NCBI GenBank assembly: GCA_964016885.1
Contig: OZ024742.1
Coordinates: 171,678,001 to 171,742,000, forward strand
Direction: 5' to 3'
Source of the DNA: Eledone cirrhosa
Taxonomy: Eukaryota
Length of the DNA stretch: 64,000 bases
The translations under genes were made by a program, and so were the position numbers. Under the pieces are notes generated by a model. The model searched no databases. It worked only from the letters and a program-made list of their open reading frames with translations, and was not told where the DNA came from. Shown here in pieces: positions 10,317 to 61,016 of the stretch (positions within the stretch are counted from its first letter, which is position 1; each line of letters begins with the position of its first letter).

Positions 10317-12458
10317 TTACTTTATAGTTATGTATATACTATACTATAAACAACGATAAACAGGGAAGGTCAGTAATTTATTACTACCTTATTACCAGTA
10401 AGAGCAATAGCTCAATGTAAGAACGTCAGTTGTTTTACTGAGCAGTAATGTAGATTACACAAGTATCAAAGTTATGTTTACATCATTTAATCGCTGACAA
10501 TTGTTTCTTCCAAATTTTAGTTTGGGGTCATCGGAGCATTAACAATGTTTGTACATATAACTAACCTCCTATTTAACTGAAGAATCATATAGATACATAT
10601 ATATTGATGTTGTGAACAACAGTTTAGTATATATAGGGTGTAATGGTTGCGACATATATTATACGAGAATTGTACACTAATTCAAATTCAAGTTAATAAT
10701 ACAAGATAATACAAGATAATACAAGAGAATAGACTTGTATTATCTTGTATTATCTTGTATTATTAAAGAAGCAATGTGAAAGGAGTATTCAAGCGTGTAG
10801 AGATTGTATATGCGTTAGTCATATATCTAGGAAGCAAACAAGCAAATATATTATGCATATATGAGTACTGTATGGCAAGGTATTACATAAAAGCTCTTAA
10901 ACGTGTTATGGAGGATAGTGGTCAATATTTTCTCATCCATTCCATATGTTAAGTTATGTTTTATTTGATGTTTGTATTGAATGTTAGTTATAGTAATGGA
11001 TCGTAACTAGGTCATATTGTATTCAAATTCATGGATTATAGTTATTTAACATCGAGATCTTACAACGGTTAATATCCGGAAGTGGATACGGAATTAAGGG
11101 GAGCTAATGCTTAAGGGGAGGTAACTAGCTGAATGCATTACTTGTTCCAATGGGCATTATATATTGTCACAATTGAATCTCTTATACAAAATATTATATA
11201 TTTATATTTAATTTTAAATAGTCTACTTTCTCATAATATATTAAAGGTTTAATTAGAATGTCGTCTACTCAATATTTGGTAAGTTATGGAATAACGTATA
11301 GCTGTTTGCATGTTAAATTAGATATCCCTTATGTAAATAAATTAATTAATCCTATATATATATAATGTTATTAATTGATAGATTTAATTATAAATGTATA
11401 TATTATTCATTGTTCCATATTACATTTACGTTAGATAAATCCCTTATGTTAATAAATTAATCCTTTATATACAATGTTATTAATTTATACATTTAATTAT
11501 AAATGTATATATAATTCATTGTTACATTTAACATTTAAAGTTTATATATATATATATATTATATTATATTTCAATCACTATAAGTAATCTAAATTAATTA
11601 TATTAAAAGGTGGTAACTAAAGGAATATATGTTAGAGACAAAAGTGATTTGTGTAGAGGAAATATTTTGTATAAGGGATTCAATTGTGACAATATATAAT
11701 GTCCATTGGAACAAGTAATGTATTCAGCTAGTTACCTCCCCTTAAGAATTAGCTCCCCTTAATTCCGTATCCACTTCCGGATATTAACCGTTGTAAGATC
11801 TCGATGTTGAATAACTATAATCCAAGAATTTGAATACAATATGACCTAGTTACGATCGATTACTATAACTAACATTCAATACAAACATCAACTAAAACAT
11901 AACTTAACATATGGAATAGATGAAAAATCAGTAACTCTCATATTCTACACACATACATATTTCAACTATACAGAAAATATTGACCTATATCCTCTATAAC
12001 ACGTTTAAGAGTGTTTATGTAATACCTTGCCATACAGTACTCATATATGCATAATATATTTGCTTGTTTGCTTCCATGATATATGACTAACGCATATACA
12101 ATCTCTACACGCTTGAATACTCCTTTCACATTGCTTCTTTAATTATTAGACTATTCTCTTGTATTATCTGTCGCTTGTATTCCACTCTGTGCTTTTAATT
12201 TTAACTTTAACTTTAACTTGAATTTGAATTATTGTACAATTCTCCTATAATATATGTCGCACCCATTACACCCTATATATACTAAACTGTTGTTCACAAC
12301 ATCAATATATATGTATCTATATGATTCTTCAGTTAAATAGGAGGTTAATTATATGTACAAACATTGTTAATGCTCCGATGACTCCAAAACTAAAATTTGG
12401 AAGAAACAATTGTCAGCGATTAAATGATTTAAACATAACTTTGATACATGTGTAATCT
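10317..12458. mobile_element. Large fold-back element with hammerhead-like core (PLE pLTR-like, apparently non-coding)
   Basis: Arms about 10452-11195 / 11661-12458; unpaired tail 10317-10451; another copy of tail plus arm at about 28430-29000. Confidence 0.8.
12368..12422 (+). ncRNA. Minimal hammerhead ribozyme candidate (U4C variant)
   Basis: CCGATGA 12375-12381, stem II tccaaa..tttgga, GAAAC-AATT-GTC 12403-12414, stem I taatgct/agc(g)atta. Mirror copy on the minus strand near 10490-10545. Confidence 0.6.
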
Positions 12459-12577
12459 CTCTCTCTCTCTCTCTCGCTCTCTCTCTCTCTCTCTCTCTCT
12501 CTCTCTCTCTCTCTCTCTCTATATATATATATATATATATATATATATATATATATATATATATATATATATATATA

Positions 12578-13006
12578 TTTAAAGGTTCAATGAATAAATC
12601 AAAGAATGAGTTTTACAATAGGTTGGAAGCACTCCACAGTGATGGTTTTCCGGAGTTATTAATATTAATTCAAAATATTAACAAAAATAGACATTCGTGT
12701 GATCAAGTATATTTTATTATACATATTTCAGAGGTAGTGAGCTATCTTCAACAGTACGTCCTCATCAGATAAAATAAGATGATGCATGACATACCCTGAC
12801 TTAGTAGATGGTTAAGATTCAGTCATGGGAGATTCACTACCATGACTGAATCTTAACCATCTACTAAGTCAGGGTATGTCATGCATCATCTTATTTTATC
12901 TGATGAGGACGTACTGTTGAAGATAGCTCACTACCTCTGAAATATGTATAATTAAATATACTTGATCACACGAATGTCTATTTTTGTTAATATTTTGAAT
13001 TAATAT
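12578..13006. mobile_element. Fold-back insert with hammerhead core
   Basis: Arms 12662-12828 / 12840-13006, 11-nt loop; CTGATGA 12900-12906, GAAA 12939-12942; unpaired tail 12578-12661; (TA)n on both sides. Confidence 0.85.
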
Positions 13007-14119
13007 ATATATATATATATATATATATATAGTAATAATAATAAAATTGAAGTCTAAAATCCAAAGAGGGCTCGATAAGGAAAATATATATCAAATATAT
13101 AAGAACCGTAGAGCAAATATTTATTAAAATAACATTAAAGTTTAAGCAAAGAATCGCTGCTTTCACCCTTAACGGGATCTTCTGAAACTAACAAAGTCAA
13201 TCTGTAAACGCAGAACTGGATATTTCAAAAAACATTGCAACCGGAGGAAGACAGGAAGACGATACTTTGGTTCGTGGTAACGTTCGCTGGGAAAGAACGG
13301 GAAAAAACGAATAATACGTAATTAATAGGAGCGGTGAAAAACAATTACGCGCAAAGACAAAACCACGTTTATGGTATAAAAGAGGTCGTAGACTAATGTT
13401 CTCTTAGGTGGTGCATAGAGACGTTCTCTGGCAATGAACGAAAAAACGAAGATAATAAGTCATATGTGGAGCGTGGAGAACAATAGCACGCAAAGACAAA
13501 ACCACGTAAATGGTATAGCAGAAATCGTAGACTAAAATTCTAACTAGGAGACCAAATGAATCTCCGCTACAGAGTTAAGAACAAAGTAAATAAATACAAT
13601 ACAGAAGTAATAGAAACAAATAAATACATACACGCAAACAGATACGTACATACACAAGCATACGTAAAAACTTACCATGGGTATACAAAACCACGCACAT
13701 ATAAATATGTGTGTGTGTGCGTATGCTTGTGTACAAATAAATAAATAATTATATAAACGTATATAAGTAAATAAATACGTATATAACAAGCGCACACGCA
13801 TACCTACATATAAATACACGAATGTTCGGAGACGTAAGTCAACTAAAACAAGAAGTACACATATACACACACCCACCATACGTACGAACCTGCACACTCA
13901 CGCGGACGCAAAACTCCCGTATACACATAAACAAACCCTAAATACCAGAATATGTAAAAATTATACGCTATAACAGTCAAATATACGTACGAGAAGGTAT
14001 ACATACCTTCACAAAACATACGGGTAATATATACTTACCTATGCAAATAAGTAAAGGAATAAACAAAACATATACTTAGCTCCCACATCAAGACGTAAAA
14101 TATCCACGTATAGATCGTG

Positions 14120-59980: not shown

Positions 59981-60041
59981 ATATATATATATATATATAT
60001 ATATATATATATATATATATATATATATATATATATATATA

Positions 60042-60547
60042 TCAAAGGCATGTATTGAGTTAAAAACGCAAAATAGTCTCATTACAGTAGATTAGCTCCA
60101 AGAAAGAGGTTTTTTCCGAGCCGTATAGTATAACTGAACAAAAAAGAAAAAAAACGAACACAGACATATACATATATGTGTTCAAATCGTAATGAACCAG
60201 AATCGCTAAGGTGCAAAAAATACTAACTACAGGCAATAGGGTTTGCCAGAATCAATTTAAGAATAAATCAAGGAAAATAAATACAAACCATAATAGGAGT
60301 AACAATTCGGCTCCGTTAATTCGTTAACTTTCGGCTCCGTTAATTCGTTGAGCTAATTCAAATGTCGAGTAAACTCGGCTGCTATTTTTAGTGGCGAGAG
60401 TGTGCGAGACACGCTAAGTTTGGGAACCATGTGCGTTACCATATACACACACTATCCAATTTTTTCACCTTAGCGATTCTGGTCCATTACGATTTGAACA
60501 CTTATAGGTATATGTCTGTGTTCGTTTTTCTTTCTTGTTCAGTTATA
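60042..60547. mobile_element. Fold-back insert
   Basis: Arms 60129-60221 / 60459-60547; tail with GCTC/GAGC stem (60095-60121). Confidence 0.75.
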
Positions 60548-60580
60548 ATTTATATATATATATATATATATATATATATA

Positions 60581-61016
60581 TAGTTAGAGAAGCAAAAAAT
60601 TGCTTATTGTGATCCAGTTTTTGGTTAAGAAAGCCAGTTTCATGGATGGTTTCAACGTACGGTTAGGGGTAACTCCACAAGTTTGTAAGGATTCCGTTCA
60701 ATCTTGGAGTATAAAGTATAAAAGAGAAAACACAGGTAAGCATTAAGAGAAGGATTTTATCCAAGTATTTACGACCGTTTCATTGGTAAGTGCAACCTTA
60801 TATTGCTATACTGCAAATAGCAGCCACTCAATTATAATTGTTGTTCACAGTCCAAATTTTCAAAATATTTTGAAAATTTGGACTGTGAACAACAATAATA
60901 ATTGAGTGGCTGCTATTTGCAGTATAGCAATATAAGGTTGCACTTACCAATGAAACGGTCGTAAATACCTGGATAAAATCCTTCTCTTAATGCTTACTTG
61001 TGTTTTCTCTTTTATA
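60581..61016. mobile_element. Spacer-less 300-bp palindrome with unpaired tail
   Basis: Arms 60717-60866 / 60867-61016; GAAAC-GGTC-GTA 60952-60963; ACTCCA/TGGAGT stem 60672-60710. Confidence 0.88.

Follow-up and report, generated by a model that had tools for sequence, protein, structure and literature searches.

Judged from their sequence, the local inverted repeats scattered through a 64,000-nucleotide (nt) stretch of the Eledone cirrhosa genome (assembly GCA_964016885.1, contig OZ024742.1, positions 171,678,001 to 171,742,000; hereafter the window) are 5′-truncated copies of Penelope-like retroelements (PLEs) of the Hydra clade, and the unpaired part beside one arm is the published PLE tail. 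These elements carry two covarying, bulged hairpins on the sense strand, between hammerhead and start codon: hairpin 1 at the inner border of the tail, and hairpin 2 just beyond the tail end, where full-length copies continue. Inverted insertions end at two sites, one before each hairpin, with one end per site; either arm may be the longer, and both come from a single source. We consider it likely that each hairpin docks the element’s enzyme on the RNA, and that reverse transcription starts 2-12 nt to its 5′ side, at a UA-rich site.

The window lies in a 3.0 Gb, AT-rich genome full of (TA)n and holds about 20 local inverted repeats. The largest (13032-16854, family A) contains, on the minus strand, a truncated open reading frame (ORF) with reverse transcriptase (RT) and GIY-YIG endonuclease domains. 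Full-length family A copies elsewhere in the genome have a single ORF of 709 amino acids, RT followed by a C-terminal GIY-YIG, in which YRDD and YIG..T..F..R motifs were read from alignments; the two domain names are based on these motifs and on likeness to published consensi. Pfam gave no RT or GIY-YIG match for the PLE ORF, a PDB sequence search found no relative, and the best 150 of 214 Rfam matches were all sub-threshold hits to microsatellites or palindromes, with nothing relevant. Compared by motif with section 11 of PMC8557442, the family A protein has RWR, DKT, CxCX5C, CxxC-E and N-CxH and lacks CCHH; a first impression of Neptune-clade membership was dropped on this comparison. RWR and DKT are present in families A, F0 and F2, and among nine Hydra-type metagenome loci, several of them partial, RWR or RWK occurs in four and DKT or DKS in five. 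A miniature inverted-repeat transposable element or DNA foldback element was ruled out, the arms being PLE 3′ ends with unequal termini.

Families F0 (window 43587-43999) and F2 (32201-32383) have intact ORFs of the family A type, at 42-54% identity to family A, and F3 and F11 continue into such ORFs. Most short inserts in the window are therefore 5′-truncated PLE copies. For F14 and F19, no ORF was seen in the sequence beyond. F6 is non-coding, a 2905-nt tandem unit with a hammerhead core and no ORF of 100 amino acids; it is young (window 22257-24145; L255), with copies about 99% alike, and probably mobilised in trans. As read-through copies show, the tail is a one-sided 3′ extension identical to the start of the next tandem unit, which is what defines a PLE tail. 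The hammerhead core, CAGAAGA in family A, was found by a simple pattern upstream of 5 of 19 window hairpins, many inserts being cut before that region, and the hammerhead is clear in six of the nine metagenome loci. Intact 3.5-kb F2 units are also found joined head-to-tail, in arrays of four or more (L248, L249; G000:C1).

The original prediction had described an RCTC..GAGY stem a few nucleotides beyond the end of pairing, with compensatory changes and free loops, as a cis-signal shared across divergent families. The stems lie where it placed them, and the offsets from arm end to stem agree within 1 nt where measured: 8 (10443), 5 (12656), 3 (13114, given as 4), 4 (20118), 7 (24011), 5 (32312), 2 (43669), 7 (60121) and 6 (60710), with looser values of 11 (20480) and 15 (31868). 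At 45537, where the arm carries a deletion, 5 nt was read by eye. GCTC/GAGC and ACTC/GAGT stems are distributed as claimed, TCTC/GAGA being seen additionally, and the loops do vary freely. Its list of tail-only inserts proved mixed: 44997-45022 belongs to a true tail-only insert, 32458-32477 is a real hairpin with upstream sequence present and no inverted arm, and 37401-37417 is unrelated, having been rejected as a motif copy for want of a U-N bulge and a covariance-model match. A real hairpin with upstream sequence and without inverted arm also stands at 54758-54778. Overlooked were the hairpins at 29196-29220, 29715-29734, 36963-36982 and 43300-43322, and one of the second type at 60334-60353. 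The features of the window are as follows.

10410-10443, minus: hairpin 1 of inverted element 10452-12458
12631-12656, minus: hairpin 1 of inverted element 12662-13006; tail end 12579; hammerhead cores 12726-12768 (minus) and 12900-12942 (plus)
13032-16854, minus: family A Hydra-clade PLE insertion; tail arm 13032-15518 (minus) head-to-head with tail-less arm 15518-16854 (plus); 98% to full-length copy L142
13070-13114, minus: hairpin 1 of family A (GCTC..TC-GAGC); tail end 13032
14120-15516, minus: RT and GIY-YIG ORF, 5′-truncated and frameshifted, in two frames (14611-15516, 14120-14743)
20118-20142, plus: hairpin 1 of inverted element 19917-20113; adjoins the next element
20480-20499, plus: hairpin 1 of inverted element 20134-20468, F0 group; tail end 20568
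22257-24145, plus: inverted insertion of non-coding F6 (2.9-kb tandem unit); hammerhead core 23898-23939; hairpin 1 at 24011-24070
29196-29220, plus: hairpin 1 of an F3-related copy; tail end 29266
29715-29734, minus: hairpin 1 of family F3 (element 29667-30705)
31868-31886, plus: hairpin 1 of inverted element 31757-31852, family F7
32201-32383, plus: short inverted F2 insertion; hairpin 1 at 32312-32335
32458-32477, minus: hairpin with no inverted arm detected; tail end 32405
36963-36982, minus: hairpin 1, F0 group (element about 36902-37125)
41725-41846, minus: F2 insertion, tail arm stopping inside hairpin 1 and joined to an inverted tail-less arm
43300-43322, minus: further hairpin match, element not delimited
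43587-43999, minus: inverted F0 insertion; hairpin 1 at 43650-43669
44944-45025, minus: tail-only insert between (TA)n and (TC)n; hairpin 44997-45022
45537-45560, plus: hairpin 1 of an older F2 copy; tail end 45608
54758-54778, minus: hairpin 1 of a single-arm short insert, F11 group; tail end 54716
60095-60121, minus: hairpin 1 of family F19 (element 60043-60547, no ORF seen)
60334-60353, plus: family F19 hairpin 2, opening the plus arm at its 5′ end
60672-60710, minus: hairpin 1 of inverted element 60717-61016

Independent evidence comes from 800 kb at preset coordinates on four other contigs, in which inverted repeats were called blind to the motif. Of 60 asymmetric inverted repeats bordered by a microsatellite at one end, 33 had RCTC..GAGY within -2 to +20 nt of the arm end on the tail side, and 0 of 60 had it on the tail-less side. 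The original prediction would have fallen had random flanks carried such pairs equally often; they did so at 693 of 18031 positions (3.8%; binomial p 6e-31, family copies not being independent). When all collected loci were clustered by family, 31 of 65 end clusters carried the motif, including F31 (an apparent antisense reading) and F48 (an apparent chance match), which were both left in. Across these 31 the offsets, expected to stay narrow in a larger sample, spanned -1 to 12. Strict motif counts were 13 in the window against 1-4 in five shuffles, and 80 over 864 kb against 26-35 when shuffled. The motif is not universal, because the 27 repeats without it include other tail classes. Together with the covariation described below, the independent sample and the end clusters support a conserved cis-signal tied to the arm end across divergent families. 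The further proposal, that it fixes where the second arm is primed or nicked, holds as to the link with the arm end; since the hairpin is present twice, it marks both insertion ends and not the second arm alone. The signal also needs a Hydra-clade PLE host, a 2-nt bulge, a covarying upper stem, strand specificity and a second copy added to its description.

With the tail placed 3′ (in family A, on the ORF strand), the motif runs from RCTC through an upper stem of 1-9 pairs and a freely varying loop to a 2-nt bulge, whose first base is U, and then GAGY, giving a 4-bp lower stem with the U-N bulge on its 3′ strand. Motif families were selected by the lower stem only. Of 31 families, 29 have T as the leading base of the bulge. 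With the bulge set at 2 nt, Watson-Crick pairs fill 61 of the 93 cells formed by upper positions 1-3 (shuffles 29.6 +/- 4.8, with 0 of 10000 as high); other bulge registers give at most 23. In a 24-row alignment that includes second-type hairpins the covariation score is 0.457, compared with 0.164 shuffled and at most 0.198 slid; it leans towards the structure because the structure was derived from the same families. G-U exceeds C-A by 16 to 3, and a fold on the sense strand is therefore favoured. The first hairpin of family F5 (e.g., L061:4270-4370) has the same shape with a GTTT/AAAC lower stem and a C-T/C-A bulge; the tail of this family is 56 nt long. In many families GAGY is often followed by RCTY, making a near-palindrome such as GAGYRCTC at the hairpin foot. 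ACTC-n-GAGT also makes up stem III in five published Hydra hammerheads (PMC8557442, File S2), and a shared origin with the hairpins is possible.

Full-length copies carry a second hairpin of the same form just beyond the tail end and before the ATG, in 10 families of this genome and in 4 elements from other species. All nine family A copies that read past the tail continue into an untranslated 5′ stretch (5′ UTR), entering hairpin 2 after 3 nt and later the ORF; in coding families the ATG follows 43-93 nt or so after the tail end. Searches in F0, F2 and F3 used the tail end plus RCTC as the sole pattern, and the U-N bulge, GAGC and upper pair came back unrequested at 4 of 4 places in F0, 11 of 12 examined places in F2 (of 458 matches) and 2 of 6 in F3. 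F6, F19, F14, F11, F5 and C16 share the arrangement, with one to three copies each; the second hairpin of F5, seen in one read-through copy, is canonical. Read-through copies without hairpin 2 are one F2 copy in C6, one F5 copy and the remaining 4 of 6 F3 pattern matches, and L230 ends inside hairpin 2. A covariance model built on this genome alone matches elements from other species. Of the nine metagenome loci, the four with a 5′ region have two hairpins before the ATG (L258, L259, L260 and L263, the last with its first hairpin mismatched at the base), two have one hairpin after a 3′ hammerhead (L266 weakly), and three are without flank. L258 stops short of hairpin 1, and L260 terminates 2 nt short of hairpin 2. 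Among published consensi inspected by eye, two hairpins at a distance of 61 nt open Hydra-1_Ajap, and a single one closes each of Hydra-2_Ajap and Hydra-2_Amil; partial forms are seen in Hydra-1_Amil and Hydra-1_Crog, and no hairpin was visible in Hydra-1_Obim.

This spread among species bears on whether the motif is merely a functionless remnant of a single ancestral tail. The carriers are confined to one clade and the shuffles do not model ancestry, yet the bulge and covarying pairs persist twice across species where loops and flanks are unalignable and proteins only 35-55% identical, and we hold bare descent to be highly improbable. In coding families the hairpins precede the ATG by some 43-93 nt, a position that would suit another role in the 5′ UTR (translation, packaging or promoter), with the ends set solely by UA microhomology to the target, and TA homology is indeed found at both ends. 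However, AT-rich 3′ regions hold many TAT sites and the ends use two; the spacing of the hairpins (55-144 nt) and the intervening sequence vary while both offsets stay short; and the non-coding F6 retains both hairpins along with its hammerhead. Such a role seems to us improbable.

The insertion ends lie at a TA-rich site 2-12 nt before hairpin 1 (site 1) or hairpin 2 (site 2). Of 99 family A 3′ ends running into (TA)n, 53 precede hairpin 1 (positions -3/-2), the other 46 coincide with the tail end, and none falls in between; the reference used for family A stopped at the tail end, so the 47 ends at 3378-3381 include 9 read-through copies, while the count of 99 takes (TA)n-entering ends only. 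Of 67 inverted insertions bounded by (TA)n on both sides, 64 use both sites, one per end. Independent site choice would give half symmetric insertions. Family A contributes 27 of 28, an unbiased count because its loci were fetched by protein; the site counts of F2, F3 and F6 are biased because theirs were fetched with tail-containing queries. Overlapping loci were kept in the 99-end and arm-length counts and removed from those of site pairing, shared variants, single arms and tail-arm stops. At 12579-13150, 20118-20570 and 60043-61016, PLE inserts directly adjoin one another, each having used (TA)n that remained next to a previous one.

Of the 28 family A insertions, 12 have the longer arm on the tail side and 11 on the tail-less side (by up to 2.7 kb), and in 5 the arms are equal. 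Six of nine single-arm family A inserts end at site 1; F3 single-arm counts were left out, its reference being without sequence beyond -151. Judging by the longer tail-less arms and these single-arm ends, site 1 behaves as a start of its own. Recurrent variants within an insertion were common to both arms in 51 cases and confined to one arm in 13, compared with 351 and 2828 between insertions. Such likeness is as expected if the arms were copied from one source RNA, and conversion between arms could add to it. Shared variants would also arise if hairpin 2 alone primed, the cDNA folding back to be copied and the copying stopping or being cut before hairpin 1, with later central deletions making the arms unequal. 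Self-priming of this kind has been proposed for PLE inverted junctions (PMC3846280), and short inserts are mostly equal-armed (12 of 14 in F2), as fold-back would give. Against this, four of the six single-arm family A inserts that end at site 1 are far longer than their partner or have none, the tail-less arm outruns its partner in the 11 insertions above, and one hairpin would need two different jobs. We think fold-back unlikely.

Priming at both hairpins would proceed as follows, its RNA-binding, dimer and priming steps leaning on the lizard element PAc, for which nicking and extension of both strands have been reported, along with two internal RNA start sites, one on either side of the tail (Frangieh et al., 2024, PMC11167929). 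The RT-endonuclease would nick both strands of a (TA)n tract, and a single read-through RNA would be gripped at hairpin 1 and at hairpin 2 by a pair of protein molecules, probably dimeric like the predicted PAc enzyme. The 3′ end made by each nick would anneal to UAU/UA just before its hairpin and be extended away from that hairpin. The cDNA from site 2 would copy the tail including hairpin 1 and may sometimes stop there: 5 of 43 family A tail arms stop within -12 to +20 of hairpin 1, and 41725-41846 in the window is a like case in F2. The two cDNAs would then be joined head-to-head via short overlaps. Under such twin priming the tail length would equal the hairpin spacing of 55-144 nt, and hairpin 2 would never be copied into truncated inserts.

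Priming on RNA is the role we favour for the hairpins over nicking of DNA. In the latter case the GIY-YIG endonuclease would recognise a single-stranded or extruded sense-strand hairpin and nick the TA-rich site before each, the ends arising by cutting of an intermediate. Both ends do lie at TAT-like sites resembling the (TA)n target; Craig et al. (PMC8557442) ascribe the tail to endonuclease-mediated resolution, and the Drosophila virilis endonuclease needed the tail to cut plasmid DNA, as reported in Frangieh et al. (PMC11167929). However, the excess of G-U/G-T puts the fold on the sense strand, whereas first-strand cDNA would be antisense; hairpin 2, absent from truncated inserts, would on every occasion need copying and then removal by cutting; and PAc start sites map on RNA in vitro (PMC11167929). 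A role as DNA is, in our judgement, not probable, if a little less remote than fold-back.

Several observations weigh against priming at two structured hairpins. The similarity of the arms could reflect conversion, concordance was weaker in F3 (18 vs 28), F6 gave no informative sites, and the equal arms of short F2 inserts have been mentioned. Taken alone the hairpins are weak, with z-scores of -2.1 to +0.1 for 10 folds; the local pairing probability of the lower stem is below 0.4 in 10 of 20, and cross-pairing between the two hairpins wins in 2 of 10 cassettes. RNAalifold on a MAFFT alignment predicts the 4-bp stem only, with 3 of 24 rows out of register. Three of the four lower pairs are nearly invariant and therefore speak for sequence conservation, not pairing, and the family shuffles ignore shared ancestry. 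PAc, moreover, has its start within an AC-rich loop (nt 111-118; counted by hand on the printed template, a UUC..GAA hairpin) and not before a stem (PMC11167929), whereas the ends here lie before the stem and the loops are free.

Other elements were seen alongside. Clusters F20, F22, F44, F51 and F58 (e.g., L058:565-760) are inverted inserts with 33-80-nt tails and ATGCYTCAAG or TGCWTTGAAG-like words, without the hairpin, and probably represent another PLE clade with its own signal; at the two loci examined for a repeated signal in the class with 33-50-nt tails, there was no shared continuation or ORF. Also without the hairpin are cluster F4 (e.g., L121:3500-4560), an approximately 430-nt tandem unit with inverted ends and a 55-nt tail, and an inverted insert with a 33-nt tail at 44011-44190 in the window (cluster F15). 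A degraded, distant PLE ORF fragment, 24% identical to family A, lies at 9017-10030 (minus). A broken long interspersed nuclear element (LINE) at 37644-40783 (plus) has Pfam matches to an APE endonuclease and RT, with a C-rich, zinc-finger-like ORF upstream (37375-37764). A broken non-LTR element at 57293-59458 (minus), with no Pfam match, has a C-terminus of the restriction-like endonuclease type and is presumably akin to Dong/R4.

How PLEs make inverted insertions with a tail on one side is an acknowledged open question, and the sole in vitro study located two starts without a common signal. A duplicated, covarying hairpin that predicts both ends across families and species points to a concrete mechanism and to precise mutants. 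It also gives a rule for the true boundaries of an abundant class of repeats, would explain the mobilisation of non-coding derivatives, and has a bearing on how the closest retroelement relatives of telomerase recognise RNA. More broadly, the pair may, as a tentative proposal that we put somewhat below even chances, be the template-recognition element of a telomerase-related RT-endonuclease dimer, with one hairpin per subunit setting its own start. As a portable cassette of roughly 100-200 nt it would then let programmed twin priming insert any RNA into (TA)n, and the same two-signal logic would recur, with different motifs, in other PLE clades.

Among other systems, L1 twin priming makes two primings from staggered nicks on one RNA, yielding an inversion joined by microhomology, with the second priming at variable sites. 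L1 arms copy different stretches, whereas here the two sites do not vary and the arms are copies of one and the same stretch. L2/CR1 LINEs and their short interspersed nuclear elements (3′ stem-loops) and telomerase RNA (template-flanking elements) have a small hairpin near the start of reverse transcription that is recognised by their own RT. Here, by contrast, the hairpin lies 3′ of the start, is uncopied by its own priming event and has two copies.

With the Hydra clade as published (Craig et al., 2021, PMC8557442) the elements share a C-terminal GIY-YIG after the RT, RW(K/R), DKT, CxCX5C, CxxC and CxH with no CCHH, a hammerhead core where one was recognised, (TA)n targeting, inverted 5′-truncated copies and a one-sided tail. 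Tails there are 30-40 nt, as opposed to 55-144 nt here, and units of about 3.3 kb (family A) and 3543 nt (F2) exceed the general tendency of that clade to stay under 3 kb. The word ‘hairpin’ does not occur in the accessible text of that paper, nor ‘hairpin’ or ‘stem-loop’ in its supplement. Inverted arms, tail, (TA)n targeting and, for PAc, two start sites are already published; for the paired bulged hairpin we found no description in the accessible PLE and retrozyme literature (including PMC3846280, PMC4209133, PMC7229834 and PMC13282606), figures, subscription papers and Repbase notes lying outside the search. We rate the pair as a new cis-element in a known class, one that makes an open mechanism directly testable.

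F6 resembles the non-LTR retrozymes (PMC7229834; bioRxiv 10.64898/2026.07.22.740005), which are non-coding, tandem, hammerhead-bearing PLE derivatives, and its tandem unit has a type I hammerhead as theirs do; their monomers are below 1 kb whereas the F6 unit is 2.9 kb, and the hairpin pair is not described in the accessible parts of those papers. PAc/Poseidon (PMC11167929), from another clade, shares two internal starts around the tail, nicking and extension of both strands, an AT-rich target and a predicted dimer, and differs in that no repeated covarying signal at the two sites is reported in the accessible text. By eye, a GAAAG..ACAAC stretch recurs in similar form in the PAc RNA template at a distance of about 35 nt, perhaps a paired signal of a different sort.

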